In this document: positions 5,508 to 56,437 of the stretch, piece after piece
How the letters are laid out: the number at the start of each line of letters is the position of its first letter
How positions within the stretch are numbered: the first letter of the stretch is position 1
Assembly (NCBI GenBank): GCA_009787385.1
Contig: WRGC01000006.1
Coordinates: 2,657 to 66,656, forward strand
Source: Bacillota bacterium
GTDB lineage: Bacteria; Bacillota; Clostridia; Christensenellales; Pumilibacteraceae
Direction: 5' to 3'
DNA length: 64,000 nucleotides
Notes under the pieces: model-generated
Told to the model about the DNA's origin: nothing
Seen by the model: only the letters and a program-made list of their open reading frames with translations
Database searches by the model: none
Program-made: the position numbers and the translations under genes

Positions 5508-5697
5508 GAGGGTGTACAATTAGATGTTATTACCTATAGACACAACTTTCAATAAAACCAGCGTTATTCTTTTTGATGCCTAAAATAAGCAAAAAGCTCT
5601 TGGGGTTACCAATCTCTCCCAAAAAACCCGAACGCTTTAAGGTTGTTTTTATTTAACTATTACTTCTTCTATTTTAACATAATCTATTTGTACACTC
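5508..5697 (+). repeat. Intergenic TIR/hairpin element, copy 1 (degenerate core)
   Basis: GAGGGTGTACAA...GTTATTCTTTTTGATGCCTAAAATAAGCAAAAAGCTCTTGGGG...CCCGAACGCTTTAAGGTTG...TTTGTACACTC. It aligns to the other 15 copies. Confidence 0.8.
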
Positions 5698-6035
5698 CTA
5701 ATCGCATTATCACAATTTATTGTTACATAGTATTATTTATCAACAAATATTTTAAGGTAAAGAGGTTTTTGTGTTTATTAGTTAATTAAATTAAATCCCA
5801 ATAATTAACAATAAAATATATTCATATAATATTCACACTTTATTGACATTTTTATGATAGTATGCTATAATATTATATAAGGAAAATTTTTGCATATACT
5901 ATTATTTGTAGTTGTCAATTTTGGTTGGTCAACTTTTTGTTGCATGGATTTTTTGTATTAATGTTTTTGTTTTGTAATGAATGAAAAAATCACACAGAGT
6001 CAAAGATTGAAAACTGATAACTAAAAAGGACAATA

Positions 6036-7991
6036 ATGAATCAGCAAAAGATATTTAAAAAGGAAGATAATATTTCTCTTCAAGTTAGACTAAAGGAGAA
6101 AGACTATTTTGTTTTGACAATTACTATTGCATCTAAAGAGTGGATAGTAGACGAAGGGCGTGTTATACATGCTGATTTCTTGGATGTGGGTAGCACTGTA
6201 TATGTCGCTTATGTATTGTTTTTGGGACATACAAACATTATCAAGCTTGCAGAAGTGGATAAACGAGTAGGTGAAGTAAATTATGAGATGGCATTGTTTG
6301 GTATGTTTAGCAATCCGCTTTTGATGTATTTTCAGGACGAAATTTTGGTATTTGCAGAATTGTATACCGACAAATCAAAATTTGTAGGTATTCGGCAAGG
6401 TAAGTGTTTTGATTTGTCTGCAGGTGGAAACAATAGATTGACTAGTATTATAGATAATGGTGATAGTTTGATAGCTGTATTGGACTGTGACCACTTTGCC
6501 AAGCAAACTGAGCCAATTAATGGTGGTATTATGCCTTTTGATTGTACAGGATTGCGTATCAAACGCAAACCTGCACTTATGACATATCGTTTGACTAATG
6601 AAGACGAAAAGGGCAAACCCAAGATAGGTATAGAGCGAAGTGATACAGATGCCTTTCTAGAAGGTGGATCAGAGATAGTCAAGCTTGCTAGTCATAGGGG
6701 ATATATTTATGCGGCGTATATGAGATTTGAAAAGTTTAGTTATGTCATCAAGGTTACTGACTTTGCAAAAGCTCAAGTTGTAGTTGACACACATCGTATA
6801 GTTAGACACTTTGATATGCACATAGAAGGAAATGAATATGTTGTAAAATCAGTAGATGCTATTTATCGCAAGCCAATAGTGGGGGGGCTAGAATTGGATT
6901 TCTTGGTTGGTGGACCTTGTAGTCAAATACATGATTGCAAGCCTGCACCTTTAGGAATGCATAGAGATTTTTATAGTTCTCCAAAAAAGAAGCCTAAAGG
7001 ACTCAATTATTATTGGGGGGACTTGAGAGTTAGGACGGATATTTCTATTAATAGTCACAGTACAGGTTGGCACTGTGGTAGTCCTGATGACAAGTTTATG
7101 GAAGTCAAGCAACTAAATGGATTGGACTTTTGTGCATTGTCTGATATAGATACTCACATAGATGATGAGCAATGGCGTGACATAAGATTTAGAAATGAAC
7201 TATACAATATAGAACATAAGTTTGTAGTTTTCAATGCTTATGAATGGGGTTTGCCTAAAGATAGAGAGAGTGAGGGGCGATACAATGTAATATTTAGAGG
7301 TAGAGGGGATATAATGCGTGGAAATCAAGCGGGCAGTGATAGTATCAACAATCTATCTTATCGTTTGCAAAATCCAATGCGTGAGGGTTTGTTTATAGTA
7401 GCTGACCCTGTAGACAAAATGAGAGGTGTCAATTGGAATAAGTTTCCGTCGGGTGTTCCAGCTCTTACAGAAGTTTTTAATGCTAAAGGTGCGTTTGAAA
7501 CTATAGACGGATTGCACAACCCTTCTCTTTACAATCGCAAAGTTAGAGAAGATTGCTTTTTAGAACAAGTTTTGCTTAGAATACCACTAGGATTTATTGG
7601 TGGTGGTGGACATGAGGGGGTGGGATTGACTTGTATTTTGGCAAAAGAACTAACTAGAGAAAGTTTGTACGATGCTCTCAAAAATCGTAAATGCTATGCA
7701 ACAACAGGTGCAAAGATATATTTGGATATTTGTATCAATGGATCTATTATGGGTGACTTTATAGCATCTAGTAGAGAAGATTATAAGGTAGAAATAAATG
7801 TAGAATCTGAGGGGTTGTTAGAAAGTGTAGAGCTTGTGACCAATCAAGGAATAACAAGAGTTCCATTTAAAAGAACAAAAGCTCAAACTGTAGTAATGGT
7901 TCAACCACACTTCAAATATATTTATCTAAGAGTATTGCAAGATGATGCACATGCTGCTTGGTCTTCACCTATATTTGTAAAACGCCGTTAG
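6036..7991 (+). CDS. Hypothetical 651-aa protein. The C-terminal half resembles the PHP/DUF3604 metallohydrolase fold, but the His motifs are substituted.
   Basis: YYWGDLRVRTDIS, ALSDIDTH, AYEWG..GRYNVIF and RKCYATTGAKIYL...SSPIFV resemble the DUF3604 signature order (GDLHxHT, TDH, EW..GH.NV, ATTG). The N-terminal 330 aa are not recognised. Confidence 0.4.
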   Translation: MNQQKIFKKEDNISLQVRLKEKDYFVLTITIASKEWIVDEGRVIHADFLDVGSTVYVAYVLFLGHTNIIKLAEVDKRVGEVNYEMALFGMFSNPLLMYFQDEILVFAELYTDKSKFVGIRQGKCFDLSAGGNNRLTSIIDNGDSLIAVLDCDHFAKQTEPINGGIMPFDCTGLRIKRKPALMTYRLTNEDEKGKPKIGIERSDTDAFLEGGSEIVKLASHRGYIYAAYMRFEKFSYVIKVTDFAKAQVVVDTHRIVRHFDMHIEGNEYVVKSVDAIYRKPIVGGLELDFLVGGPCSQIHDCKPAPLGMHRDFYSSPKKKPKGLNYYWGDLRVRTDISINSHSTGWHCGSPDDKFMEVKQLNGLDFCALSDIDTHIDDEQWRDIRFRNELYNIEHKFVVFNAYEWGLPKDRESEGRYNVIFRGRGDIMRGNQAGSDSINNLSYRLQNPMREGLFIVADPVDKMRGVNWNKFPSGVPALTEVFNAKGAFETIDGLHNPSLYNRKVREDCFLEQVLLRIPLGFIGGGGHEGVGLTCILAKELTRESLYDALKNRKCYATTGAKIYLDICINGSIMGDFIASSREDYKVEINVESEGLLESVELVTNQGITRVPFKRTKAQTVVMVQPHFKYIYLRVLQDDAHAAWSSPIFVKRR

Positions 7992-8049
7992 TAGAATTTT
8001 GTATATTTTTGTATAAAAATCTTTTAATATATGAATTATAAATTTACAA

Positions 8050-8505
8050 ATGATAGATACAATGAAAAAGTTTATGAAACAGTCTATACATGTAGCACGC
8101 AATAGTGATGATTGTGAAGTGCCTGTTGGTGTTGTTATTGTACGAGAGAACGAAGTTTTGGTTAGTGCTTGCAATGAGCGAGAAAGCAATTTTGATCCTA
8201 CAGGGCATGCCGAAATTGTTGCATTACGCAAAGCAGGTGCTATTTTGAATAGATGGAATTTGAGTGATTGTGATTTGTATGTCACGCTAGAACCGTGTAC
8301 TATGTGTGCGGGTGCTATAGTCAATGCAAGAATTCGTAAAGTAGTATTTGGGGCATATGACGCAAGATACGGTGCAATGCAATCGGCATATTCAATTGGA
8401 ACAGATGGCAAGCTCAATCATAGAGTGCAAGTTCAAGGCGGTATATTGAGTGATGAATGCGGTCTTTTGCTCACGGAATTTTTTAAAAAAATTAGAAGAA
8501 AATAG
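8050..8505 (+). CDS. tadA: tRNA-specific adenosine deaminase
   Basis: HAEIVALRKAG and TLEPCTMCAGAI (CMP/dCMP deaminase zinc motifs H-A-E and PC..C). 151 aa. Confidence 0.9.
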   Translation: MIDTMKKFMKQSIHVARNSDDCEVPVGVVIVRENEVLVSACNERESNFDPTGHAEIVALRKAGAILNRWNLSDCDLYVTLEPCTMCAGAIVNARIRKVVFGAYDARYGAMQSAYSIGTDGKLNHRVQVQGGILSDECGLLLTEFFKKIRRK

Positions 8506-8737: not shown

Positions 8738-8900
8738 ATTTGATTATTGTCAAGTTAGTTGCTTTCTAATTTAGAAAGTATATATTTTTTTGTTGATGTT
8801 TTTAATATTCTCAAATTTTTATCTATATAATATAGTGTTTTTATTTAATATAAAAAACAACACTTTAAATTCATATCTATCAAATTAACTAAGGGGAAAA

Positions 8901-10502: not shown

Positions 10503-10672
10503 TAAAATTATTTTATGGATTGTTTTGCATGTAAATATGTGAGACAATTCTTTTTTGAACAACAATCTATGCATACAGATTTTTTGATGACTAGTTGTGT
10601 AGATAATTAATTTATATTGACATGATTTGATAATGTGTTGTATAATGCAAATATTGATAGAAGTTAAAGATT

Positions 10673-10851
10673 GAGAGTATACAAATAGAGATTATTAACA
10701 ATAGTATACAAATAACAAAATAAGCATTATTCTTTTTTGACCCCAAAAAAGAATCAAAAAAGCTCTTGGGGGCGAATCCCCCAGAACGCTTTAAGGTTGA
10801 TTTTATTTAAGTTGTTACTTTCTCTCATCTAATGTTTTTGTTTGTACACTC
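10673..10851 (+). repeat. Intergenic TIR/hairpin element, copy 2
   Basis: GAGAGTATACAAATAGAG...TTATTCTTTTTTGACCCCAAAAAAGAATCAAAAAAGCTCTTGGGGGCGAATCCCCCAGAACGCTTTAAGGTTG...TTTGTACACTC. Confidence 0.9.
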
Positions 10852-10895
10852 CTTAAAGATTTATCATAATTATTTTAATCAACATATATTATACA

Positions 10896-13266: not shown

Positions 13267-13318
13267 AAACTTATAATTGCAATAAACAACTTATTTGTAA
13301 TTTAAGGATAATTTTGTA

Positions 13319-13515
13319 GAGTGTATAATTAGAGATTCTTAACAACAAGATACAAACAATCAACCAAAACAGCGATATTCTTTTTTGACGCCAAAAAAGA
13401 ACCAAAAAAGCACTTGGGGGGGGGCGAATCCCCCCCAAAAACCCCCGAACGCTTTAAGGTTGTTTTTTATTTATGTATATTACTTCTTTACATCTTAATG
13501 TACTCTATGACACTT
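13319..13515 (+). repeat. Intergenic TIR/hairpin element, copy 3 (G9/C7 core; right TIR degenerate)
   Basis: GAGTGTATAATTAGAG...ATATTCTTTTTTGACGCCAAAAAAGAACCAAAAAAGCACTTGGGGGGGGGCGAATCCCCCCCAAAAACCCCCGAACGCTTTAAGGTTG...AATGTACTCTATGACAC. Confidence 0.9.
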
Positions 13516-13554
13516 TTATAGATTAATGTATTTTTATATACTATATTAATATTA

Positions 13555-14166
13555 ATGGCAGTTATTAGTCAAATTACAATGCAAAACAAAAATAAAAAGC
13601 GTGTCAATTTGTATATTGATGGCAATTTTTGTTGTGGATTAGAGACAATTACTGTATTGAAACACAATTTGATTGAAGGACAGATTGTAGATTTGGATTA
13701 CTTAAGTCAGTTGCAGTTGGAGAGCGAAAAAAATACGGCATTTGATAAAGCTATAAGGTATATATCCATACGCATGCGTAGTCAGTTAGAGATAGAAAAT
13801 TATTTAAAGGATAAGGGTTATTTGCAGGCGACAATTGACTATTGTATAGAAAAACTATTAGATTATAAGTACATTAATGATGAAAGTTTTGCAAAGAATT
13901 ATATTGCAAGCAAAGGGTATAAAAATGGAAAACGCAAGCTTGAGTATGAGTTGCACAACTTTGGTATAGACAAAGACATAATAGACAATTGTTTAGACAA
14001 TTTGGATAGTCACAAATCATTGCTAGATTTGATAGAAAAAAAATATAGAGGTGATAAGCAAAAGATAATTGAGTATTGTTTGGGTAGGGGTTTTGTGTTT
14101 AGTGAAATTAGGCAAGCTTTGGATGTTTTTTTGGAAGGTGTTGAAAGTGATATGAATGTTGAATAA
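13555..14166 (+). CDS. recX: Recombination regulator RecX
   Basis: 203 aa. Contains VNLYIDG..., AFDKAIRYISIRMRSQLEIENYLKDKGY and repeated three-helix units (..DESFAKNYI..) typical of RecX. Confidence 0.8.
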   Translation: MAVISQITMQNKNKKRVNLYIDGNFCCGLETITVLKHNLIEGQIVDLDYLSQLQLESEKNTAFDKAIRYISIRMRSQLEIENYLKDKGYLQATIDYCIEKLLDYKYINDESFAKNYIASKGYKNGKRKLEYELHNFGIDKDIIDNCLDNLDSHKSLLDLIEKKYRGDKQKIIEYCLGRGFVFSEIRQALDVFLEGVESDMNVE

Positions 14167-14226
14167 GTAAATAGTATTGCTGCAACAATTTGTCCTACTA
14201 TTATTGATAAATTCTTAGTTTATTAG

Positions 14227-14340
14227 GAGTATACAAACAAAGTACATTGTTAAAATCAACATTTTGGGAATTAAAAAAGAATTAAGTTGGTTTTGTTGAA
14301 AGTTTGTATGTTATTGTAATAACTCTCGTTGTACGCTCTC
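14227..14340 (-). repeat. Intergenic element, internally deleted copy (both termini kept, hairpin core missing)
   Basis: GAGTATACAAACAAAGTACATTGTTAAAATCAACATT...GGTTTTGTTGAAAGTTTGTATGTTATTGTAATAACTCTCGTTGTACGCTCTC. Only 114 bp, versus about 190 bp for full copies. Confidence 0.75.
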
Positions 14341-14371
14341 TTTTATTTCATTGCTAGTTGTTGTATTATTT

Positions 14372-14722
14372 ATGATAGGTATAGATATAATAAACATAGA
14401 CAGAATAGCTAAATTGATTTCACAATCTCACTTTGTAGCTTCTAAAATATTTTGTGAACAAGAGTGGCAATACTATATGTATAGTGGCTCAAGGGTAGAG
14501 ACATTGGCGGGTATGTTTTGTGCTAAAGAAAGTTTTGTAAAAGCTATGGGTTGTGGTTTTGGTGATATTAGTATGACTGATGTATGTGTATGTCATACAA
14601 ATTTAGGACAACCGTATATTGTAGCTAGTAACAAGGCAAGAGAGTTGTTGTGTGGAAAAATTCCACAATTGTCTATTAGTCATAGTGGTAGTGTAGCTGT
14701 GGCTGTATGTGTGTTGTTGTAA
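14372..14722 (+). CDS. acpS: Holo-[acyl-carrier-protein] synthase
   Basis: MIGIDIINIDRI..., LAGMFCAKESFVKAMG.G and ISHSGSVAVAV. The start is placed at the conserved MIGID (the track ORF begins at 14351). Confidence 0.85.
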   Translation: MIGIDIINIDRIAKLISQSHFVASKIFCEQEWQYYMYSGSRVETLAGMFCAKESFVKAMGCGFGDISMTDVCVCHTNLGQPYIVASNKARELLCGKIPQLSISHSGSVAVAVCVLL

Positions 14723-14828
14723 TGTATTCAATATTTTAATTGTTGCAGTTGACTTTGTTATGCTAATAAATTCAATACAAAAATTAGAAATTTTAAATAG
14801 GTATAATTTAGTAAAAAAAAGGAGATAA

Positions 14829-15029
14829 ATGATGAGTAAGTATCAAGTGGATATCAATAATGAGCAATACGAGTCTGCAACGGATAAGGCTTCTAATCTT
14901 GGATTGAGTGTGCAAGAATATATCACATATATTGTTCACAATCACTTAGATGCTTTGCATAGTATAAAGATAGCAGACTTTCAAAATGCTTATTTTGATG
15001 ATATACTTTTAGGAATAAGCGATATATAA
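14829..15029 (+). CDS. Putative ribbon-helix-helix antitoxin (MazE/EndoAI position)
   Basis: Strong SD AAGGAGATAA. The beta-alpha-alpha pattern KYQVDINNEQYESATDKASNLGLSVQEYITYIVHNHL. Located just upstream of mazF and after acpS, as in the Bacillus ydcB...ndoAI-ndoA region. Confidence 0.5.
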   Translation: MMSKYQVDINNEQYESATDKASNLGLSVQEYITYIVHNHLDALHSIKIADFQNAYFDDILLGISDI

Positions 15030-15113
15030 AATTATAATCTCTTCTAATGGTGTTTACATATTAGAGGTGAACCATTAGAGTGAGACGATTGGTAATTAAA
15101 TTGGCAATTGTAT

Positions 15114-15488
15114 ATGGAGAATGAATTGGAAACTTTAAAGAATGATATTCAAATATTTAGGGGCGATATTTATTATGCAGATCTAAGCCCAGTCCTTGGT
15201 AGCGAACAAGGAGGAATGAGACCTGTGTTGGTAGTGCAAAATGATACAGGCAATAAATTTTCACCAACTATTATAGTGTGTGCAATCACTAGTCAATTGA
15301 CAAAGGCTAGACTTCCTACACATATAGAAGTATCAAAGGGGCAATTTGGTTTGCCTAAAGATAGTGTAATATTATTAGAACAAATTAGAACAATTGATAA
15401 AAGGCGTCTAAAAGACATGTGTGGAAAGTTGGACAACAATTACTTAAGTAAAGTAGACAAAGCTCTAATTGTGTCATTGGGATTATAA
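15114..15488 (+). CDS. mazF: MazF/EndoA-type endoribonuclease toxin
   Basis: [57 protein letters not shown]...[17 protein letters not shown] is nearly collinear with B. subtilis EndoA. The start is ambiguous: TTG 15108, ATG 15114, or TTG 15126, which is preceded by GGAG. Confidence 0.9.
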
Positions 15489-15577
15489 TAAATTACTTTA
15501 GATCTAATTCACTCAACAAAGTTGTGAGTTAGATTTTTTAATTGTTAGCAAAATATTTGCGTATTAATGATTTTTTA

Positions 15578-15769
15578 GTAGTGTACAACGAACGGTTATT
15601 AACAATAAAATACAAACAATCAACAAAACTAATATTATTCTTTTTTGACGCCAAAAAAGAACCAAAAAAGCTCTTGGGGGGCGAATCCCCCAAAACCCTC
15701 GAACGCTTTAAGGTTGTTTTTATTTAAGTTGTTACTTTTTTTCAATCTTAATGTACTCTTTATACATTT
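15578..15769 (+). repeat. Intergenic TIR/hairpin element, copy 4
   Basis: TAGTGTACAACGAACGG...TTATTCTTTTTTGACGCCAAAAAAGAACCAAAAAAGCTCTTGGGGGGCGAATCCCCCAAAACCCTCGAACGCTTTAAGGTTG...AATGTACTCTTTATACAT. Confidence 0.9.
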
Positions 15770-15851
15770 CTTAAAATAGATACTGATAGCAGTACAATTG
15801 TTCTAATTTTGTTTTATCACATATTTTGTATATATTTCATACTATAATGGT

Positions 15852-28263: not shown

Positions 28264-29020
28264 AGATAAACAAAGTTCCAACAACCCAAAAGTATGGTTG
28301 TCATCAAGAAAAGTTGATACTAGATTGCCAGTACACAAGGCGTTGATTGTATGCAATGCTAAGTGTACCGAGGTAAATTATTTTAAAGGTGCAGTCAAGT
28401 TTTTGAATGGTTTAAATAGTAGTCGTACAAGTATTAGACAAGATGTATTAAAGGTTAGGTATCACAAATCAGGTGTATCACCATTACAGTTGGTAGAAGA
28501 AATAAAAAGAAAAAATAAAACTAAAAAATCATCTATAAACATTGACGATTATGATACTGTTTGGATAGTTTTTGATAGAGATGACAATGATGATAATCAA
28601 TTTGAACAAGCTATATCAAAGGCTGAAAAATTAAGCAACCGTAACACCAAAGTTTTTGCGTTGTACAGTATACAAAGCTTTGAACTTTGGTTGTTGTTAC
28701 ACTTTGATTACTATAATGTTGCAACTAATAGAAATTATTATTTTGACAAACTAAAACAAAAGCTTGGACAAGCATACAATAAAACAGACAATAATATTTT
28801 TGATAACTTATTGCAATGTGCTTGTAATAGCAAACAACTTGAATATACTCAAGACAATATACGAGATATTATCAGTATGGCAATAGCTAATGCACAGAGA
28901 TTGCAACAACAATATAGCCCCAAAATACAACAACCTTTGTCTAGTTGTGACCCAATAACAACTGTGTTCAAATTTTTTGAGTATTATTTTGAAGAGTTGG
29001 AATTGATAGAGAGTGTGTAA
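28256..29020 (+). CDS. RloB-family (Toprim-like) protein, AbiLii-like
   Basis: ALIVCNAKCTEVNYFKG, VWIVFDRDDND and SIQSFELWLLLHF match the RloB blocks. ATG 28256 overlaps the ATPase stop (ATGTCTAA). The track ORF starts at 28208. Confidence 0.75.
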   Translation: MSKDKQSSNNPKVWLSSRKVDTRLPVHKALIVCNAKCTEVNYFKGAVKFLNGLNSSRTSIRQDVLKVRYHKSGVSPLQLVEEIKRKNKTKKSSINIDDYDTVWIVFDRDDNDDNQFEQAISKAEKLSNRNTKVFALYSIQSFELWLLLHFDYYNVATNRNYYFDKLKQKLGQAYNKTDNNIFDNLLQCACNSKQLEYTQDNIRDIISMAIANAQRLQQQYSPKIQQPLSSCDPITTVFKFFEYYFEELELIESV

Positions 29021-29197
29021 ATAGAGTACATTAATCTAGAAAGAATTAACACCCCAATTAAATAAAAACAACCATAAAGCATTCAGGGGGGGATTCCCCA
29101 AAGAGCTTTTTTGGTTCTTTTTTGGCGTCAAAAAAGAATAATGCCTGTTTTGTTGAAAGTTTGTATTTTATTGTAATAACTATTGTTTTACGCTCTT
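29009..29197 (-). repeat. Intergenic TIR/hairpin element, copy 5 (its terminus overlaps the RloB-like stop codon)
   Basis: GAGAGTGTGTAAATAGAGTACATTAATCTAG...CATAAAGCATTCAGGGGGGGATTCCCCAAAGAGCTTTTTTGGTTCTTTTTTGGCGTCAAAAAAGAATAA...GTTTTACGCTCT. Confidence 0.9.
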
Positions 29198-29702: not shown

Positions 29703-29749
29703 ATTGTGGGACAAATATTTTCTAGTTGTCAAAATTATTATATTTTTAT

Positions 29750-29943
29750 ATAGTGTACAACTAGAGTTATTAGCAACAGAATACAAACTTTCAACAAAAC
29801 AAACATTATTCTTTTTTGACGCCAAAAAAGAATCAAAAAAGCTATTGGGGGTGTGATTCCCCCAACCCCCCGAACGCTTTATGGTTGTTTTTATTTAAGT
29901 TGTTACTTCCTTTCCATATTAATATACTATATTCGTATACTAT
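29750..29943 (+). repeat. Intergenic TIR/hairpin element, copy 6
   Basis: TAGTGTACAACTAGAG...TTATTCTTTTTTGACGCCAAAAAAGAATCAAAAAAGCTATTGGGGGTGTGATTCCCCCAACCCCCCGAACGCTTTATGGTTG...ATTCGTATACT. Confidence 0.9.
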
Positions 29944-30006
29944 TTATTTTTATTATTGGATATTATTATATGTATAAAAATTTTTAGATGTGTCTACAAT
30001 TGTTGT

Positions 30007-30543: not shown

Positions 30544-30582
30544 CAACTGTGGGTTGTAGTCACTTTGTGAAAATTTTATTAG

Positions 30583-30770
30583 GGGTGTATAAATAGAGTG
30601 TATTAAGATTGAAAGAAAGAAGAACTTAGAATAAAAGCAAGCATAAAGTCTTTGGGTGTTTTAATTCGCACCACCAATAGCCTTTTGGGTTCTTTTTAGA
30701 GTCAAAAAAGAATAATCTTGGTTTGGTTGATGGTTTGTATCTTTGTTAACAATCTCTCCTTGTATATTGT
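30583..30770 (-). repeat. Intergenic TIR/hairpin element, copy 7 (degenerate)
   Basis: GGGTGTATAAATAGAGTGTATTAAGATTG...GCATAAAGTCTTTGGGTG...CCTTTTGGGTTCTTTTTAGAGTCAAAAAAGAATAA...CCTTGTATATTG. Confidence 0.7.
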
Positions 30771-30955
30771 CATCTTATTATAGAACTTTATTATAGCAAA
30801 AGTTGGATAATAAAAATACTGTTTGAGTACTATTGCACTAATTTGAAAGTTGGTGCAATAGTATTTTTGTTATTATATTTTTAGTTATATGTCTAATAAA
30901 TGTATAAAATAATAACATTTGTAAAATTTTACAAATGTAGTTTGTTTTTAGCAAC

Positions 30956-31849: not shown

Positions 31850-31931
31850 TATTTGTAGTGTATTATCAAATTTAAGCCTTAAAAATGTATTGAAAAGTCT
31901 TGCAACAAGTATAATTTTTGTAATCAACTAT

Positions 31932-32116
31932 AGAGTTTACAACTAGAGTTATTGGCAACAGAATACAAACAATCAACAAATATTCTTTTTTGACGCCAAA
32001 AAAGAATCAAAAAAGCTATTGGGGGAGGCGATCCCCTCAAACCCCCGAACGCTTTTAGGTTGATTTTATTTGATTGTTTTTTTCTTTCTATTTTAATGTA
32101 CTCTATTTTTACATTA
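31932..32116 (+). repeat. Intergenic TIR/hairpin element, copy 8
   Basis: AGAGTTTACAACTAGAG...ATATTCTTTTTTGACGCCAAAAAAGAATCAAAAAAGCTATTGGGGGAGGCGATCCCCTCAAACCCCCGAACGCTTTTAGGTTG...AATGTACTCTATTTTTACAT. Confidence 0.9.
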
Positions 32117-32166
32117 CTTTTATATTTAATACTAAAGCATAACGGCTACAACATATAATAAATACG

Positions 32167-33025: not shown

Positions 33026-33239
33026 AGAATGTAATATTATGAAAGCATAACTAGGTTTTATTAACAATAAGATACAAACAATCAACAAAAGTAGTGTTAT
33101 TCTTTTTTGACTCCAAAAAAGAACCAAAAAGCTATTGGGGGCGAATCCCCCAAATCCTAGAACGCTTTAAGGTTGATTTTTTATTTATGTGTTACTTGTT
33201 TAATCTGTCCATCTTAAATGTACTCTATTTGTATACTCT
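33026..33239 (+). repeat. Intergenic TIR/hairpin element, copy 9 (left end degenerate or extended)
   Basis: ...TTATTAACAATAAGATACAAACAATCAACAAAAGTAGTGTTATTCTTTTTTGACTCCAAAAAAGAACCAAAAAGCTATTGGGGGCGAATCCCCCAAATCCTAGAACGCTTTAAGGTTG...AAATGTACTCTATTTGTATACTCT. Confidence 0.85.
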
Positions 33240-33371
33240 AATATTATAAAAAATATATGCAAAGTATTGCAAAACATCATTCATTTTTGGGTGATGTTTT
33301 TGTCTTATAATTTCGTTATAAAAATATATTGCAAGTTACATACTATTTTGTATACAATTGCAAGGTGAAGT

Positions 33372-35585: not shown

Positions 35586-35688
35586 CTGTGTACAATTAAT
35601 CTAAAACATAAATTGCAACCTCAACACATATATATGAGATTGCAATTTGATTTTTACTGCTATAAATAATAAAGTATTGTTGTGTTAG

Positions 35689-35899
35689 GAGTTTAGAGTG
35701 AGCTATTATTAACAATAAGATACAAACAATCAACAAAACAGGCGTTATTCTTTTTTGACGCCAAAAAAAGAATCAAAAAAGCATTTGGGGGGTTGCGAAT
35801 CCCCCCAAACCCCCAAACCCCCGAACGCTTTAAGGTTGATTTTGATTAACTGTACTATACTATACTTCTTTCTATCTTAATATACTATTTGTACACTCT
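35689..35899 (+). repeat. Intergenic TIR/hairpin element, copy 10 (AAACCCCC motif duplicated)
   Basis: GAGTTTAGAGTGAGC...TTATTCTTTTTTGACGCCAAAAAAAGAATCAAAAAAGCATTTGGGGGGTTGCGAATCCCCCCAAACCCCCAAACCCCCGAACGCTTTAAGGTTG...ATATACTATTTGTACACTCT. Confidence 0.9.
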
Positions 35900-36014
35900 T
35901 GAATAGAGTATTATTTATCATAGAACAATGTACATTTTGTAAATATTGACAAATCAAACATATATCAATATTGTTTACAATTTAGTTGTTTTTGTGTTAA
36001 TATTATAGTATATT

Positions 36015-37403: not shown

Positions 37404-37447
37404 AAATACAAAAAGTATCTTATTTAAATAAGATACTTTTTGTATTT
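37404..37447. terminator. Perfect 19-bp hairpin terminator after the 36015 gene
   Basis: AAATACAAAAAGTATCTTA-tttaaa-TAAGATACTTTTTGTATTT. Confidence 0.65.
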
Positions 37448-37456
37448 TATTGTTAG

Positions 37457-37649
37457 GAGTTTACAAATAGAGTAAATTAAGATGTAGAAGTAATAACTTA
37501 ATTAAAATCAACATTAAAGCGTTCGGGGGTTTGGGGGGATTCGCAACCCCCCAAGAGCTTTTTTGGTTCTTTTTTGGCGTCAAAAAAGAATAACGCTAGT
37601 TTTGTTGATTGTTTTTATCTTATTGTAATAACCGCTCTTGTACACTCTC
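37457..37649 (-). repeat. Intergenic TIR/hairpin element, copy 11
   Basis: GAGTTTACAAATAGAGTAAATTAAGATG...CATTAAAGCGTTCGGGGGTTTGGGGGGATTCGCAACCCCCCAAGAGCTTTTTTGGTTCTTTTTTGGCGTCAAAAAAGAATAA...CTCTTGTACACTCTC. Confidence 0.9.
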
Positions 37650-38224: not shown

Positions 38225-38350
38225 ATGGTATCATTATACCATATTATAGCAACAAAGTCAAGTATACCAGCGTCCCCCTATTTTGTGCTTCATCAATAGT
38301 TTGTATTAGATATTAATATAAATTTATATAATTTGTATGTAAGATATTGT

Positions 38351-38544
38351 GAGTGGACAAATATAATGCATTAATATGAACAATGAAGTAAATATTTAAA
38401 TAAAAACAAACCATAAAGCGTTCGGGGGTTTTGGGGGGGGATTCACCAAGAGCTTTTTTGGTTCTTTTTTGGCGTCAAAAAAGAATAACTCTGGTTTGGT
38501 TGATTGTTTGTATTTGTTGTTAATAATCTCTTGTTGTACACTCT
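38351..38544 (-). repeat. Intergenic TIR/hairpin element, copy 12
   Basis: GAGTGGACAAATATAATGCATTAATATG...CCATAAAGCGTTCGGGGGTTTTGGGGGGGGATTCACCAAGAGCTTTTTTGGTTCTTTTTTGGCGTCAAAAAAGAATAA...CTTGTTGTACACTCT. Confidence 0.9.
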
Positions 38545-38657
38545 AAATATTTGTGATATATTTGAATAAAATTGACAATCAAACAACAAAATTGCCACCA
38601 AAGCTTGTTGTCAAAAGGTTGTGATGGCAATTTTGATATTTAACTAAAAAATATTAT

Positions 38658-46601: not shown

Positions 46602-46744
46602 AGTACAATTATAGTGTTTTTGTGTGAAAAAGTCAACAAATTTGTAGTTGTGGACAAGTGTCATCAAATAATGTAGATACAGATAATATAATAATTGTAT
46701 TTATTAATTTCATGTTCAAATTTAATATAAGCTTAATTGTAATA

Positions 46745-46927
46745 TAGTGTACAACGAGATGGTATTAACAACAAGAAACAAACTATCAAGAAAACTAGAG
46801 TTATTTTTTTGACGACAAAAAAGAACCAAAAAAGCTATTGGGGAATCTCTCCCCCCCCCACCGAACGCTTTAAGGTTGATTTTATTTAGGTTACTTTTTC
46901 ATATTAGTGTACTCTATTTGTACACTT
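46745..46927 (+). repeat. Intergenic TIR/hairpin element, copy 13 (C9 tract)
   Basis: TAGTGTACAACGAGATGG...GTTATTTTTTTGACGACAAAAAAGAACCAAAAAAGCTATTGGGGAATCTCTCCCCCCCCCACCGAACGCTTTAAGGTTG...AGTGTACTCTATTTGTACACTT. Confidence 0.9.
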
Positions 46928-47192
46928 CAAAAAGAAAAGGAATTAGAATAAAGTAAATAGAAAATATAATAAAGCTTAGTTATTAAGTTCATTTTTAAAT
47001 CTACTAGGTTTATTATACAATTGGATTAGTTTTAGATTTTAAAAATAGATTGGGAACAATGCAATTTATTTTCAGTAAAAATGTAAATAAATTGTAAATA
47101 ATCAATATATTGACAAATTGTAAACAATTGAAATTGAATGACAAAATTATAAAAAAATGTTAATATATAGTTATAGTGGAGTAATGTAATAT

Positions 47193-49082
<1,890 letters not shown>

Positions 49083-49144: not shown

Positions 49145-49218
49145 ACAAAACTATATATCATATGCTATGATATATAGAGTATATTAATCTCAAATAGAGT
49201 TGTATAATGAGTATAGCG

Positions 49219-49399
49219 AAGTGTACAAATATGGTATATTAAGATGTAAAGAAGTAATACCTGAATAAAAAACAACCTTAAAGCGTTCGGGGGGATTCCC
49301 AAAAAGCTTTTTTGGTTCTTTTTTGGCGTCAAAAAAGAATAGCTCTTGTTTTGTTGAAAGTTTGTATTTTATTGTTAACAACCTCTTGTTGTACACTTT
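49219..49399 (-). repeat. Intergenic TIR/hairpin element, copy 14
   Basis: AAGTGTACAAATATGGTATATTAAGATG...CCTTAAAGCGTTCGGGGGGATTCCCAAAAAGCTTTTTTGGTTCTTTTTTGGCGTCAAAAAAGAATAG...CTTGTTGTACACTTT. Confidence 0.9.
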
Positions 49400-49461
49400 C
49401 TTTATTATGTCAAAATACTTATACATAAATTGCTAAACTGTGATTGGTAATTAATTTACAT

Positions 49462-52422: not shown

Positions 52423-52588
52423 CAGTTTAAATTGCAAATGGATACAAAAACTTTAATAGATTTAGAAATAGAATATTCCATTGTTGATAATTTCCACGAG
52501 TGTAACAACTATGCTATTACACTTTCTAAATTACATTACCTTTAGTATAGGACAATGTCCTATACCCAACATTTGAAAAAGAGACAAA

Positions 52589-52638
52589 CTAATCAAAACA
52601 ACCAAACTTGTATTAAAGAGTTTGGTTGTTTTGATTAG
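52589..52638. terminator. Bidirectional terminator between convergent addB and the hydrogenase-like gene
   Basis: CTAATCAAAACAACCAAACT-tgtattaaag-AGTTTGGTTGTTTTGATTAG, a perfect 20-bp stem. T-rich sequence lies downstream on both strands. Confidence 0.7.
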
Positions 52639-52676
52639 TGGTTGTTTTATTGAAATTTTAAGATATTAAAATTTGT

Positions 52677-53831
52677 TTATTTTTTAGGATAATTTCCATA
52701 CTTAGTATGCAATACTTTGTGTGCTTCATGACTCAATGGTTCTTTGTATTTTTTGTCATAAACTTCTTTTATGCTTGGATTTTCATGGCAATGTCTAATA
52801 GTCATATTGTCATCTTTGTTTTGTAGAGCAGCTATGCGAGCTTTTCTACCATCGTCATCAGTAGGGGGTTGCCCTGGTCCTGAAATGCACCCACCTTTGC
52901 ATGTCATGATTTCTACAAAGTGATATGGACAGTTGCCCGATAGAGTTTGTTCTACTATTGCTTTTGCATTTGCAAGTCCATGTACAACAGCTACCCTTAC
53001 TTCTGTGCCACCTAAGTCTATTGTAGCTTCTCTAATACCATCAAAACCTCTTACTGGAGTAGCCTTGACAAAATCAGGATCTGGATTTTTGCCGTTTACA
53101 ATATAGTATGCTGTGCGGATTGCCGCCTCCATTACACCACCTGTTTTACCAAATATAGCACCTGCACCCGAACCCATAAAATCGTCAAAGTTGCTATCTT
53201 GCATATCATCAAAAGAAATTTTTTCTTCTTTTAGCCAATTGCCTAATTCTACTGTAGTTATGCAATAATCCATGTCACGCATTTCTGGATTGCCATATTC
53301 TATTCCAGCTGCATTCATTTCTTCACGATTTATCTCAAATTTTTTGATTGTACAAGGTGTTAGCACTACATTGACTATATTGTTTGGGTCAATATTATTT
53401 TCTTTGGCAAAATAAGTTTTTATAGTAGGACCGTGCATTCCTATAGGACTTTTGGCTGTAGATAAATGTGGAATAATTTCAGGAAAGCTTTTTTCTACAA
53501 AGTTAACCCAACCAGGGCAACATGAAGTAAACTGAGGTAGTTTGCCTGTACCATTTTTGATACGATCAACTAGTTCGGCAGATTCTTCCATAATCGTCAT
53601 ATCTGCGCCAAAGTTGATATCAAAAACATAGTCAGCTCCTAATTTTCGCAAAGCTGCTACCATTTTTCCCTCTACAAAATGCCCCGCAGGTTTGCCAAAC
53701 ATTTCACCCAAAGCCACTCTTACAGCTGGGGCAGTAGACATAATGACAATCTTGTTTGGATCTGCTACAGCTTTTTTGATATCTTCTATTGGATTATATT
53801 TCATGATTTCTATCATTGACATATTTTTCAT
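52677..53831 (-). CDS. [FeFe]-hydrogenase catalytic (H-cluster) domain protein without N-terminal ferredoxin-like domains
   Basis: H-cluster signatures FTSCCPGWV (P1), LTPCTIKKFE (P2) and VEIMTCKGGCISGPGQP (P3). The ORF begins at the equivalent of the H-domain start (ADPNKIVIMSTAPAVRVALGEMFG). Confidence 0.8.
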   Translation of the reverse strand: MKNMSMIEIMKYNPIEDIKKAVADPNKIVIMSTAPAVRVALGEMFGKPAGHFVEGKMVAALRKLGADYVFDINFGADMTIMEESAELVDRIKNGTGKLPQFTSCCPGWVNFVEKSFPEIIPHLSTAKSPIGMHGPTIKTYFAKENNIDPNNIVNVVLTPCTIKKFEINREEMNAAGIEYGNPEMRDMDYCITTVELGNWLKEEKISFDDMQDSNFDDFMGSGAGAIFGKTGGVMEAAIRTAYYIVNGKNPDPDFVKATPVRGFDGIREATIDLGGTEVRVAVVHGLANAKAIVEQTLSGNCPYHFVEIMTCKGGCISGPGQPPTDDDGRKARIAALQNKDDNMTIRHCHENPSIKEVYDKKYKEPLSHEAHKVLHTKYGNYPKK

Positions 53832-53860
53832 AATAAAATTCCTTATATATTTTTCTTGTA

Positions 53861-54424
53861 TTAAATGTTTATCACTTTTGCATTTAGTAGTTTGACATCA
53901 TTTGGGTCATGACTTACAAAAATACAAATTTTGTCTATGGTTTGGTTTTTGATTGTTTCTATAGTTTGCAATTTGGTTGTCATGTCTAGTCCATCAAAAG
54001 GTTCATCTAATATTAGTATTTCAGGTTTTGCAAACAATGCTCTTGCTATTGCTATCCTGCGTTTCATTCCACCACTAAGTGTATTCACTTTGTATTTGGT
54101 TATGTTGTCCAATCCAAGTTGTGTCAAGAGTGATTTTGCAAACTTTATTTCACTATTTTTGCCAACTAGCAACATGTTTTTTATTACTGTCATGCTCTCT
54201 ACAAGTCTATCTTCTTGAAATACACAACCAATTGTTGCATTGTTGGGCAATACAATTGTCCCACTATCAGGTTTTTGTAGTCCTACAATAAGTGATAAGA
54301 TAGTTGTCTTACCTTTTCCTGACTGCCCCATAATGCATGTATTGCCTTTTTCAAAGCTTATGCTCAAATCTGTTAGAACTTGATTGTCTCCATATGATTT
54401 ACAAATTTTGTCTAATAATATCAT
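53861..54424 (-). CDS. ABC transporter ATP-binding protein (compact, 187 aa)
   Basis: GQSGKGKTT (Walker A), FQE (Q-loop), LSGGMKRRIAIARAL, ILILDEPFDGLD, VSHD. Confidence 0.85.
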   Translation of the reverse strand: MILLDKICKSYGDNQVLTDLSISFEKGNTCIMGQSGKGKTTILSLIVGLQKPDSGTIVLPNNATIGCVFQEDRLVESMTVIKNMLLVGKNSEIKFAKSLLTQLGLDNITKYKVNTLSGGMKRRIAIARALFAKPEILILDEPFDGLDMTTKLQTIETIKNQTIDKICIFVSHDPNDVKLLNAKVINI

Positions 54425-55186
54425 CTAATTCTCAATTTGTTTTTTAAAAGCATTTATACTAAACAATACAACATATTCAAATGACACGCTCAACAATACT
54501 ATTATTACAGTCCATGCAAAAACATTGTCCATCATCAAATATAGTTTGGAAATTTGCAGTTGGTTTCCTATACTATCTTTTACTACACCTATAAGTTCGG
54601 CAGCTATACCTGACTTGAATGCAAGACCAATGCTAATTTTGCATGAAGTAGAAAAATATGGCAGAATATGATGCACTTGTATATAGAGTAGTTTTTTGGG
54701 TCTACTTATATTGAATACTGTTGCCATTTCTATTATATTTTTGTCTATACTATTTAGCCCCAACAATATATTTGCATACACTATTGGAAAAACCATAATA
54801 ACTACAATGATTGTAGATAGGTTGGATTTGTTGGAAAGTGCTATAAGTAATAGTATAATAAAACTAGCTACAGGTATAGCTCTAAGTGCCGAAATTATTG
54901 GGGCAACAAATTGTTTTATAATATCAATTTTGTAAGCTAGTATCGCAATTATTGTTGATACAATACAAGCTATAAAAAATCCCAAAACAATTTTATAAAA
55001 TGAATTGAATATAGACAACCAAAATTCTTGAGTCTTAGATAAATTTAATAGAGAATGCAAAACACTTAGTGGACTAGGCAATACCAAGTTGTTGGATATA
55101 GTTAGTGCAATCACTTGCCACAGTAGTAGCCAAAATAGTATTATAGTTGTTTTAGAAAGTATTTTTAGAAAATGATTTTTTTTCAT
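54425..55186 (-). CDS. ABC transporter permease (NitT/TauT-like, BPD_transp_1 type)
   Basis: 253 aa with about 6 TM helices. Abuts the ATPase gene (stop/start adjacent). Confidence 0.75.
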   Translation of the reverse strand: MKKNHFLKILSKTTIILFWLLLWQVIALTISNNLVLPSPLSVLHSLLNLSKTQEFWLSIFNSFYKIVLGFFIACIVSTIIAILAYKIDIIKQFVAPIISALRAIPVASFIILLLIALSNKSNLSTIIVVIMVFPIVYANILLGLNSIDKNIIEMATVFNISRPKKLLYIQVHHILPYFSTSCKISIGLAFKSGIAAELIGVVKDSIGNQLQISKLYLMMDNVFAWTVIIVLLSVSFEYVVLFSINAFKKQIEN

Positions 55187-55189
55187 ATA

Positions 55190-56185
55190 TTATATAAAAT
55201 AAAAATCGTTGTCAGGCAACTTGCCACCTATGATAGGAGCTTTAAAGTCCAATAATATTTTATAAAATTGTTCTAATTGCTCTTTCATATTTTGCTTTTC
55301 TACAAAGACAACTCCACTATTTGGTAGGGCTTGCTTGGCAATTGGCAATGATGGTATTATTTTCATATCAACTATATATTGAGCTGCTTTGTCTATATTG
55401 ATTGGATCTATCATCCATTCTACAGACTGCTTGTATTCTGTCAAAAATTTATCAAACATTTCTCTATGGTTGTTGACAAAATCTGTTTTTGCTACCATTA
55501 CACCTGTTGCAATTGGTGTGTCAGGATAATACTTACTCCATGTATCAGCTATATTTTGTACAAATGTAGCTAAGGGTTGCCCATTTTCTCCCTCTTGCAT
55601 AATTGCATTTGTTGCGGCAGGTTGTGGCAAAATTGCGTAGTCAGCAGTTCCTTGTTTGAATTTTGCTATAATCTCTGTTGGATCTGGTACAAACTCTAAG
55701 TCTAACTCTATATTTTCTTTGTTTGATAGATGTTGTATTATAGCTTCAGGCGTTGCTCCCTGTCCTGTGGTAAATACTTCTTTTTCATTTAGCTCCGTAA
55801 AACTTGTTATTGGTTCAGCCCCTGTGCGTTGTACTAGTGTGAGTACATTTCCAGCATTGATAGTTATTACTTGCAAATCTACACCTTTGTTGTACAATAT
55901 TGCCGCTACATTGGATGGAACACTAGCAATATCTACACTACCATTGACTAGAGCCGCAGTTGCTTGGTCGGGCGATGTAGCAATTTCTAGATTGTAGTCA
56001 GTCAATTCGCCATTGGATATTTTGTTATTCATATAACCAAATCCAATACCCGTAGGTCCAGACAATGCTATTATATTGACTTTTCTATTGTCATTAGAAA
56101 CGCTACAAGAAGTTAAAAACACACTTGCCATTAATATTGTCAATACAAAGATGTATATATATTGTTTTGATTGTATTTTATTCAT
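55190..56185 (-). CDS. ABC transporter substrate-binding lipoprotein (NMT1/SsuA-like)
   Basis: Signal peptide plus lipobox FLTSC-SVS. 331 aa and the first gene of the operon. The substrate cannot be deduced. Confidence 0.65.
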   Translation of the reverse strand: MNKIQSKQYIYIFVLTILMASVFLTSCSVSNDNRKVNIIALSGPTGIGFGYMNNKISNGELTDYNLEIATSPDQATAALVNGSVDIASVPSNVAAILYNKGVDLQVITINAGNVLTLVQRTGAEPITSFTELNEKEVFTTGQGATPEAIIQHLSNKENIELDLEFVPDPTEIIAKFKQGTADYAILPQPAATNAIMQEGENGQPLATFVQNIADTWSKYYPDTPIATGVMVAKTDFVNNHREMFDKFLTEYKQSVEWMIDPINIDKAAQYIVDMKIIPSLPIAKQALPNSGVVFVEKQNMKEQLEQFYKILLDFKAPIIGGKLPDNDFYFI

Positions 56186-56249
56186 GTGTATATATTATAT
56201 CACATTTTGTGTATTTTGTCTAATATAAAAGTTTTACATATAATTTGAT

Positions 56250-56437
56250 GAGTGTACAAATAGAGTACTTTAAGATGGAAATTAAGAAACAACTAAATAA
56301 AAACAACCATAAAGCGTTCGGGGGTGGGGAGATTCCCCAAATGCTTTTTGCTTCTTTTTTTGGCGTCAAAAAAGAATAAACTTGGTTTTGTTGATTGTTT
56401 GTATATTATTGTTAATAATAGCTCGTTGTACACTCTC
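56250..56437 (-). repeat. Intergenic TIR/hairpin element, copy 15
   Basis: GAGTGTACAAATAGAGTACTTTAAGATG...CCATAAAGCGTTCGGGGGTGGGGAGATTCCCCAAATGCTTTTTGCTTCTTTTTTTGGCGTCAAAAAAGAATAA...CTCGTTGTACACTCTC. Confidence 0.9.

Follow-up and report, generated by a model that had tools for sequence, protein, structure and literature searches.

The recurrence of sixteen copies of an unfamiliar repeat in one 64,000-nucleotide stretch of DNA (the window) from an uncultured termite-gut Firmicute population raised the question of what these repeats are, how they arrived and what they carry. The repeats are a family of miniature transposons (MITEs) of ~195 bp without an earlier description, and the kind of element is well known. 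All 16 copies listed by the first-pass annotation were recovered by repeat finding, MAFFT alignment and an nhmmer profile scan (Table 1). The nhmmer scan of the window matched the 15 full copies at E values of 1e-43 to 1e-57 and the deleted copy at 1.4e-17; no additional copies were found, the leftover weak matches being the palindromic core against itself on the reverse strand. The places assigned earlier were right, while the ends were extended by 2 nt beyond the terminal decamers (GA..., ...CT) and the copy set at 33026 was found to start at ~33039. Copies generally lay outside genes, as described at first pass, except for that at 29009-29197, which overlaps 12 nt of an RloB-like ORF. The element measured 181-216 bp, with one copy of 116 bp, below the ~300-bp ceiling for MITEs, and contained no ORF.

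Table 1. Copies of the MITE in the window and the central signals of the exemplar copy
Feature	Position	Strand	Length	Remarks
Copy 1	5508..5699	+	192 bp	Divergent spacer, DAHP synthase (-) / 651-aa gene (+); TSD decayed, 5/8
Copy 2, exemplar	10673..10853	+	181 bp	Perfect 8-bp TSD TAAAGATT at 10665-10672 and 10854-10861
Hairpin 1 of copy 2	10730..10753	+		TTCTTTTTTG-ACCC-CAAAAAAGAA; then A-linker TCAAAAAAGC at 10754-10763
Terminator-like signal of copy 2	10754..10784	-		GC hairpin 2 (10766-10784), then GCTTTTTTGA (reverse complement of 10754-10763), into T-arm of hairpin 1
Copy 3	13317..13517	+	~200 bp	Between purB and recX; end uncertain by ±2 nt because of a 3-nt deletion in right TIR
Copy 4	14225..14340	-	116 bp	Internal deletion; both termini and left arm retained, hairpin 1 through GTTGATT core lost
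Copy 5	15577..15771	+	195 bp	Upstream of murC-like ligase gene
Copy 6	29009..29197	-	189 bp	Covers final 12 nt and stop codon of RloB-like ORF ending at 29020
Copy 7	29749..29944	+	196 bp	Perfect TSD TATTTTTA at 29741-29748 and 29945-29952; between nrdR and spoIIR
Copy 8	30581..30771	-	191 bp	TSD 7/8 (AATAAGAT/AATAAAAT)
Copy 9	31931..32118	+	188 bp	
Copy 10	33039..33240	+	~202 bp	Left terminus degenerate, GAAAGCATAA from 33041
Copy 11	35687..35900	+	214 bp	Additional C-run repeat in hairpin 2; right arm longer
Copy 12	37455..37649	-	195 bp	Terminator-like side toward + strand (37530-37555 plus T-tract)
Copy 13	38349..38545	-	197 bp	
Copy 14	46743..46929	+	187 bp	
Copy 15	49217..49400	-	184 bp	Immediately upstream of addB
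Copy 16	56248..56437	-	190 bp	Perfect TSD CAAATTAT on each side

MITEs were defined as AT-rich, folded elements with terminal inverted repeats (TIRs) and a target-site duplication (TSD) (PMC3049150). The termini of the family read GA-GAGTGTACAA ... TTGTACACTC-CT, with an abrupt onset and end of conservation in the copy alignment; the outermost two bases were asymmetric (GA versus AG). TIR conservation was 87-88% across 121 strictly unique copies, and the imperfect inverted repeat reached ~45 nt inward. The earlier consensus, with its GAGTGTACAA/TTGTACACTC ends, AATCAAC/GTTGATT pairing and two central hairpins, was correct in each of these parts. A TSD of fixed length, 8 bp, was recognised: of 80 copies, 30 had flanks agreeing at 7/8 positions or more, compared with 0.9 expected (1000 shuffles; mean 0.9, maximum 5 copies), and 11 of that set were perfect; three copies in the window have perfect TSDs. 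The best scores in flank comparisons all fell on a single diagonal, and the match per position was 0.56-0.76 over exactly 8 positions and ~0.25-0.4 outside them, although some copies may have a TSD of 9 bp. The duplications were 85% A+T, and no fixed 4-5-nt target motif was conserved in the left flanks.

Scanning beyond the window, a check that the annotation had proposed, yielded ~120 unique copies on other contigs of the same population, and at least seven large contigs, including that of the window, carried the element. Copies made up 2.2-5.1% of host DNA, or one per 3.8-8.9 kb, and three were present in an 8.9-kb contig extension that served as an unbiased sample. With unrelated flanks at more than 100 unique sites, the family is dispersed. 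Intergenic copies numbered 124 of 129, orientation relative to genes was unbiased (51:39), and neither gene 3' ends nor convergent genes were enriched. The identification as a non-autonomous transposable element was upheld by the TIRs, the 8-bp TSD, the number of unique sites, the absence of coding capacity and the lack of a nearby transposase, and a true MITE is strongly supported.

The family is old. Mean pairwise identity among copies was 73%, divergence from the consensus was about 18%, and the TSDs of many copies had decayed. No insertion polymorphism was detected, occupancy being identical in five assemblies made independently (two from ENA and one each from JGI, Logan and NCBI); because these near-identical assemblies all come from one near-clonal population, strain-level empty sites were not demonstrable among them. 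Given the 73% identity and the lack of polymorphism, the family is largely fossil, and the recent spread suggested at first pass was not supported. In relatives at 62-66% PurB identity, gene order was retained and the spacer orthologous to the site of copy 2 was just 70-94 bp, versus 393 bp here, a comparison at the family level. No copies were found in 42 kb of these relatives, and the element was shown to be restricted to one lineage.

Two near-invariant blocks had been noted within the unit, and the alignment bore this out: hairpin 1 was 96% and CCCCCGAACGCTT 92% conserved, compared with 82% for the whole element. The variable parts were positions 13-19, hairpin 2 (mainly in the length of its G/C runs) and positions 161-172. 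Divergence was 0.03-0.07 in hairpin 1 and 0.01-0.12 in CCCCCGAACGCTT, against a neutral value of ~0.25 estimated from TSD decay, which puts conservation of the core blocks ~4-6-fold above neutral expectation. This makes the earlier suggestion of selection on the core plausible, while the surplus conservation of hairpin 1 could come partly from AT-biased mutation or gene conversion.

Conserved hairpins 1 and 2 and a strong predicted fold (z = -5) would also be expected of a multi-copy structured small RNA or cis-regulatory RNA, in which the inverted ends would be a closing helix. GNRA-like loops (GCGA/GCAA) capping hairpin 2 in several related families, along with compensatory changes between families, agree with that reading. 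However, both strands folded equally well at z = -5, and mismatches in the pairing showed no strand signal (G.U = 211 versus A.C = 210); the element is therefore a palindrome at the DNA level rather than an RNA. Orientation without bias, hairpin 1 without compensatory changes inside the window family and the lack of a consistent promoter also spoke against an RNA family, and the TSD indicated that the unit arrived by transposition. Rfam, which the annotation had named as a check, was scanned at gathering score and permissively (E<=10); nothing overlapped any copy, a tmRNA being the sole match in the window. We consider an RNA family very unlikely.

The central ~95 nt of the MITE, read on its reverse strand, run from a GC hairpin through a T-tract into a T/A palindrome, which is the anatomy of an intrinsic terminator. 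This feature of the opposite strand of the core had not been remarked on at first pass. A scan of the consensus flagged hairpin 2 with its T-tract in the reverse reading of the element. In that direction the terminator-like signal was intact in 68-69 of 79 copies (86%), whereas the forward strand had such a signal in 14 of 79. In tight, operon-like spacers, the terminator predicted from sequence was co-directional in 2 of 12 cases; adding the three co-directional copies that lie within the acc gene cluster, a little beyond the edge of the window, brought this tally to ~3/13 (p about 0.09).

The core of the MITE was homologous to mosaic repeats without TIRs that lie next to stop codons in human-gut Clostridia MAGs, and in these sister families 29 of 67 units started 3-15 nt past a stop codon. 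The sister families combine the core with other hairpin modules, swap compensatory type-1/type-2 variants at orthologous sites and, unlike the window family, are enriched at gene 3' ends; every one of them has the same terminator anatomy with different stem sequences. They behave as REP/BIME/SPRITE-type mosaic modules, resembling REP/BIME in having mosaic hairpin modules that are exchanged between copies just downstream of genes. This behavior, along with high density and intergenic location, would favor reading the window repeats as REP/BIME-type palindromes mobilized or maintained by a RAYT (HUH/Y1) enzyme or spread by recombination, with no TIR-based cut-and-paste. The window MITE, however, has TIRs and an 8-bp TSD, which neither REPs nor HUH-type transposition produce, and the REP/BOX-type alternative raised in the annotation is unsupported for the window family because REPs lack both. 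The unit is ~195 bp rather than 20-40 bp and has no conserved GTAG-type head or REP-like 5' tetranucleotide. A HUH/Y1 motif screen of all loci collected gave no convincing candidate, and no RAYT was found. A REP/BIME origin of the window family is thus highly improbable.

The statement that the window lacks a transposase held: neither a transposase gene nor a multi-copy ORF turned up there, in its ±10-kb flanks or in ~0.5 Mb of host DNA. A search of about 1 Mb of sequence likewise yielded no autonomous element sharing the termini of the MITE; one terminus-like match proved to adjoin DnaB. Hairpin-rich, non-coding and abundant elements can also be palindrome-associated transposable elements (PATEs) of IS200/IS605 or TnpB-type origin, their hairpins being subterminal transposase or guide-RNA structures, and the A/T hairpin of the sister families, at the extreme 5' edge of the unit and preceded by TGRTR, fits this reading. 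Yet IS200/IS605 elements have neither TIRs nor TSD, whereas the window MITE has both, the left flanks hold no conserved 4-5-nt target and no TnpA or TnpB ORF was found, which leaves a PATE exceedingly improbable. A local duplication or assembly artefact, with the clustering of eight copies within 29-38.6 kb as its sole point, was refuted by unique flanks at every copy, an arrangement identical base for base in the five assemblies and copies on at least six other large contigs, and we give it virtually no credence.

Searches of the literature and annotated records with the MITE sequence returned no match, and the view that the repeat is not BOX, RUP, Correia or ERIC was consistent with this and with the Rfam result. 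In Correia elements the TIRs span 26 bp and the duplicated target is TA; RUP, which is associated with IS630-Spn1, also has a TA TSD. Membership of the window MITE in the Correia group was rejected on its different termini and 8-bp TSD: its ends are of the GAGAGTGTACAA type, its duplications are A/T-rich, its sequence is unrelated and its host belongs to another phylum. Correia elements (CREE/NEMIS, Neisseria) nevertheless resemble the window MITE in being short (~100-160 bp), TIR-bounded, intergenic MITEs that fold into long hairpins. They number in the hundreds and take up a few percent of the genome in hosts without a cognate transposase, and they are reported to influence transcription by way of promoters, RNase III sites and termination (background partly in PMC3049150 and PMC10969869). 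SPRITE, a Firmicute interspersed repeat, is defined by a terminator-like stem that leads into a U-rich tract; it is concentrated near gene 3' ends, and co-option as a terminator has been proposed for it (PMC3049150). The stem and T-tract resemble the cargo of the MITE, and most of all the stop-codon-adjacent sister families. However, the "TIRs" of SPRITE are merely AAAA/TTTT, with no demonstrable TSD and ~30 copies per genome (PMC3049150), whereas the window MITE has TIRs of 12 nt or more, an 8-bp TSD, one copy per 4-9 kb and no 3'-end bias, and the sequences are dissimilar. RUP and BOX (S. pneumoniae) and ERIC/IRU (enterobacteria) are likewise small (~100-200 bp), intergenic and non-coding; RUP and BOX share TIRs and TSDs with the window MITE, ERIC forms long imperfect palindromes, and BOX has a modular build, as do the mosaic sister families (PMC10969869, PMC3049150). 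Sequences of RUP, BOX and ERIC are unrelated to that of the window MITE, and their copy densities are lower: RUP and BOX have 110-125 copies per 2.2 Mb, and the highest number reported for ERIC is 711 (PMC10969869, PMC3049150).

Taken as a whole, the repeats are very probably ~195-bp non-coding transposon remnants that were mobilized in trans and carry as cargo a predicted terminator that may be under selection. A DDE-type transposase would have moved the MITE by binding the imperfect TIRs 5'-GAGAGTGTACAA ... TTGTACACTCCT-3', and a staggered cut in A/T-rich intergenic DNA would have produced the 8-bp duplication. We infer that this transposase is gone from the genome or rare; it may have belonged to a family making 8-9-bp duplications, e.g., IS256-like, which is a guess on our part. 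Read on the element's reverse strand, the ~95-nt cargo would be a Rho-independent terminator working in one direction, built from hairpin 2, the T-tract and the T/A palindrome of hairpin 1, which could supply a U-tract from either side, and it may have been maintained by selection after insertion. The family is notable for its density and for this predicted terminator-like cargo. If the cargo does terminate transcription and is selected, the MITE would act like Correia or SPRITE-type repeats, reshaping the boundaries of transcription units.

All 16 positions at which the first-pass annotation had placed copies of an unrecognised intergenic element overlapped repeat families in repeat finding, and the 16 segments could be aligned end to end. 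An nhmmer profile built from these copies and run on the window returned 15 full copies (E 1e-43 to 1e-57) and a truncated copy (1.4e-17). No further copies were detected in the window by this profile, the remaining matches being weak reverse-strand self-matches of the palindromic centre. Across copies, conservation set in sharply at GAGAGTGTACAA and stopped at TTTGTACACTCC(T). The description of the element as unrecognised also stood, as the tmRNA gene was the sole window match at the Rfam gathering thresholds, no Rfam match overlapped a copy even at E<=10, and a full-text search of the literature for the element's sequence strings matched no paper.

Comparison of the left and right flanks of each copy yielded one strong diagonal, with match frequencies of 0.56-0.76 at exactly eight positions, located 2 nt outside the conserved decamers, and background values on either side. 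This target-site duplication (TSD) had at least 7 of 8 bases identical in 30 of 80 strictly de-duplicated copies, while shuffled pairs gave on average 0.9 such copies and at most 5 (1000 shuffles); it was perfect in 11 of the 80, and the duplicated octamers were 85% A+T. The hallmarks of a MITE are terminal inverted repeats (TIRs), a target duplication of fixed length, small size, the lack of an ORF, and many dispersed copies (PMC3049150), and each of these was found in the window family. Therefore, the family is a MITE family, and it is genuine, well bounded, and previously undescribed.

No autonomous insertion sequence with the ends of the MITE was found in the window, its flanks, ~0.5 Mb of host DNA, or ~1 Mb of sequence overall, nor was a transposase gene of any kind found in these searches. 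The search covered solo AGTGTACAA termini in the ~1 Mb, multi-copy ORFs, HUH/Y1 motifs, Pfam analysis of 30 window ORFs, and the annotated flanks. A terminus-like site in MAG CSMAG_1773 (locus L007) was rejected as an autonomous partner, since it adjoins a DnaB helicase gene. An 8-9-bp duplication combined with G-A/G termini is reminiscent of IS256-type elements. Strain-level empty sites were not found in the accessible data, as no flank-joining match occurred among the retrieved loci and every assembly came from one near-clonal population; orthologous pairs were all >=99.5% identical, and the "second MAG", GCA_009787335.1, was the same organism as that of the window.

The spoIIIA operon and the genes spoIIR, nrdR, ftsH, eno, purB, and addAB mark the window as chromosomal DNA from a spore-forming Firmicute that is uncultured. 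Five assemblies made independently carried the window sequence without a base difference: two metagenome assemblies from ENA, JGI 3300002238, one assembly from Logan, and the NCBI MAG GCA_009787335.1, labelled "Firmicutes/Bacillota bacterium". The next-best PurB match was only 66% identical, indicating an isolated host lineage. Relatives with 62-66% PurB identity kept the local gene order, with a spacer of 70-94 bp compared with 393 bp where the window carries a copy, and neither the MITE nor its core was found in 42 kb of these relatives. A metagenome scan with the core pattern recovered at least 103 stretches, in which the profile identified at least 121 strictly unique MITE copies, mostly on large JGI contigs co-occurring with the organism of the window; the core pattern had no match in viral contigs. 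Relating the copy number to the full length of the contigs and to their covered length set bounds on the density of one copy per 3.8-8.9 kb (2.2-5.1% of the DNA), and the unbiased 8.9 kb directly past the window end contained three more copies. The MITE was intergenic in 124 of 129 copies, and in a sample of loci chosen for carrying copies it occupied about a third of the intergenic regions (113/324). Its orientation relative to flanking co-directional genes was unbiased (51:39).

The first-pass annotation had proposed either recent spread or selection on the core. Recent spread was disfavoured by the mean pairwise identity of the copies (73%; 82% to the consensus), by TSD decay, which corresponds to roughly 0.25 substitutions for each site and lineage after insertion, and by the absence of polymorphism; taken together, these suggest a family that is old and for the most part fossil. 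Conservation of hairpin 1 (96%) and of CCCCCGAACGCTT (92%) was well above the element average and exceeded the neutral estimate from the TSDs ~4-6-fold, G/C positions included, which suggests either post-insertion constraint or homogenisation.

The MITE consensus folded on both strands with z = -5 against shuffles. The outer stem is formed by the TIRs, followed by an AATCAAC/GTTGATT stem and an AGCGTT/AACGCT stem, from which hairpin 1 (TTCTTTTTTG-ACGC-CAAAAAAGAA) and hairpin 2 (TTTGGGGGG-loop-CCCCCCAAA) branch off at a three-way junction. RNAalifold produced no consensus on 79 copies, and explicit pair counts were used instead. G.U and A.C mismatches were balanced (211 vs 210) and no compensatory changes in hairpin 1 occurred across the 79 copies, indicating that within the window family the fold is an inherited DNA palindrome; it provides no evidence there of a strand-specific RNA.

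In a scan of the consensus, hairpin 2 and the adjoining T-run were flagged as terminator-like on the reverse strand of the element. On that strand, a stable hairpin (median -13 kcal/mol) ended a few nt from a T-tract in 68-69 of 79 copies, compared with 14 of 79 on the forward strand. Every core family showed the same reverse-strand layout, with a family-specific stable hairpin, 0-4 nt, T6-7, and then TTCTTTTTTG, which is, as predicted from sequence, the anatomy of an intrinsic terminator. The families were compared by folding each one separately, as hairpin 2 was not aligned consistently by MAFFT. Copies in tight, operon-like spacers were predicted to avoid the terminator-sense orientation, and terminator-sense copies made up 2 of 14 in such spacers, or 2 of 12 after de-duplication, fairly stably across thresholds. 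Adding the copies beside acc genes just outside the window changed this count to ~3/13 (p ~0.09). The terminator-like side of the three acc-spacer copies was co-directional with the genes, an odd arrangement if the terminator were efficient.

Several other features were observed in and around the window (see table). tmRNA genes are classic integration hotspots; no integrase was seen. The ATPase and RloB-like genes look like a putative abortive-infection or OLD-type defence pair, and because the RloB ORF has its last 12 nt and stop codon inside MITE copy 6, the native C-terminal end has apparently given way to MITE sequence. Tandem coding repeats of ~243-255 bp specify the Listeria-Bacteroides (Flg_new) repeats of a set of paralogous secreted proteins; no other protein family was multi-copy in 0.5 Mb of host DNA. 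A perfect A/T-rich palindrome beside copy 12 looks like a candidate native bidirectional terminator between a Flg_new gene and a minus-strand ORF. The LPMO_10 and GH18 genes may serve chitin or polysaccharide degradation in this termite-gut symbiont. GC skew was strongly positive throughout the window and approximately zero or negative at 52000-56000, coinciding with the only minus-strand gene block (hydrogenase, ABC transporter).

Features in the window and in loci retrieved from databases
Feature	Locus	Position	Strand	Remarks
MITE copy	window	10673-10853		perfect TSD TAAAGATT
MITE copy	window	29749-29944		perfect TSD TATTTTTA
MITE copy	window	30581-30771		TSD 7/8
MITE copy	window	56248-56437		perfect TSD CAAATTAT
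Three MITE copies, same orientation	L146, past window end	14104-16665		spacers accC-accD, accD-accA, accA-yitT
AAA_21/AAA_23 ATPase and RloB-like pair	window	26995-29020	+	
Flg_new gene	window	32167-33009		
Flg_new gene	window	36015-37388		repeats 36742-37224
Flg_new gene	window	47193-49082		repeats 47752-48798
GH18 chitinase-type gene	window	33372-35585		
LPMO_10 (AA10) gene	L001, upstream of window	339-2147		
Palindrome	window	37404-37447	+	20-bp stem, then T-run; weak spurious Rfam matches
tmRNA gene	window	44970-45361	-	unusual tag ANKTAKTNVAPAYAPTFAFAA
385-aa ORF	window	45510-46667	-	beside tmRNA gene, then MITE copy 14; no Pfam match
Type-1/type-2 core	L013, human-gut Clostridia MAG	2943/4991		
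Type-1/type-2 core	L018, as L013	3701/5784		
Type-1/type-2 core	L036, as L013	12573/14636		
Type-1/type-2 core	L070, as L013	614/2664		
Type-1/type-2 core	L119, as L013	6477		
Nested small repeat	L076	~5400-5517		
Nested small repeat	L017	58-140		
Head palindrome	L141 (pBF9343)	2170-2225		GTTCTTTTTT-loop-AAAAAAGAAC + CAAAAA(A)
Head palindrome	L145 (pMMCAT_BeggCL11T00)	1455-1545		as L141
Head palindrome	L144 (C. perfringens plasmid)	1480-1600		as L141

The core was also found without TIRs in other uncultured Clostridia, namely the human-gut MAGs HGM11348 and UMGS1470 and the termite MAG Th196P3bin33, with nhmmer E values of 1e-9 to 1e-12 over ~65-85 nt. These sister units are mosaics with other long hairpins; 50 of 67 follow a co-directional gene, and 29 of 67 begin 3-15 nt past a stop codon. 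Integron attC sites were rejected as their identity, as their arms deviate from RYYYAAC/GTTRRRY and copies in the window lie in both orientations among housekeeping genes. At orthologous sites with flanks ~98% identical between strains, two diverged core versions (type 1 and type 2) were found, with compensatory differences in both hairpins. Swapping also affected the long A/T hairpin modules downstream (types a, b, and c), giving a BIME/BOX-like mosaic. A small repeat (…CCATGTCATCCTGAGACGCCACTCC…GGCAATCTAAGGATC…) was nested in the core unit at two different positions, indicating mutual insertion among several tiny elements of these MAGs.

The 36-nt head of the core, comprising the palindrome and A-tract, was additionally detected in Brachyspira genomes, Bacteroidales plasmids, and C. 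perfringens plasmids. These cross-phylum matches were short and weak and may be convergent; those in plasmids (E 1e-3 to 10) sat in terminator contexts and may therefore be low-complexity palindromes rather than homologues. In two annotated plasmids, the head directly followed a GC hairpin 3' of a gene, its T-arm forming the U-tract of a predicted forward terminator. In many Bacteroidales plasmids, unannotated DNA contained the T/A palindrome right after ardC or JAB-domain genes, preceded by a GC hairpin, and small C. perfringens plasmids carried it in tandem arrays. The 36-nt head was also shared by two short non-coding repeat families from other metagenomes, with units of ~310 bp (L049/L053/L097/L120; Ga0210386) and ~250 bp (L045/L059/L074/L116/L123), whose remaining sequence was unrelated.

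Prokaryotic MITEs have been little studied. The window family is similar in mechanism to Correia, RUP, and other bacterial MITEs, and its cargo resembles SPRITE, a terminator-like pneumococcal repeat enriched at 3' ends (PMC3049150); however, sequence, termini, and TSD length all differ from those of Correia, RUP, and SPRITE, so it is not a member of these families. Its density exceeds that of the pneumococcal repeats, at 110-125 copies per 2.2 Mb (PMC3049150), and lies at the high end of prokaryotic values in a 2024 review, according to which MITE loads close to those of plants have not been observed in prokaryotes (PMC10969869). One family at 2-5% of a genome is at the upper end of known loads. 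The family is noteworthy for this very high load, for its conserved polar terminator-like cargo, and for the homology of that cargo to stop-codon-adjacent mosaic repeats without TIRs in other gut Clostridia. The link between a MITE with TIRs and TSDs and such repeats of human-gut Clostridia suggests that functional modules move between repeat families, which bears on the origin of REP/BIME/SPRITE-type elements. As a polar terminator-like signal is part of every copy, the places where transcripts end in this uncultured termite-gut symbiont may have been rewired by the family. It explains the fragmentation of MAG assemblies and the inflated length of intergenic regions in the host clade, and its profile can be used as a lineage marker.

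A more speculative reading, which we consider rather unlikely, is that the core is more than cargo and evolves independently as a "portable terminator" that is exchanged horizontally. Such a module would consist of the T/A palindrome GTTCTTTTTTG-N4-CAAAAAAGAAC, the A/T tract, and a variable GC hairpin, would be common to the termite-gut MITE with TIRs and to the non-TIR mosaics 3-15 nt behind stop codons of human-gut Clostridia, and would possibly occur in Brachyspira chromosomes and Bacteroidales or C. perfringens plasmids as well. It would stay under selection after insertion, and, if this were true, mobile repeats would have supplied a large proportion of the transcription-unit boundaries of these genomes.
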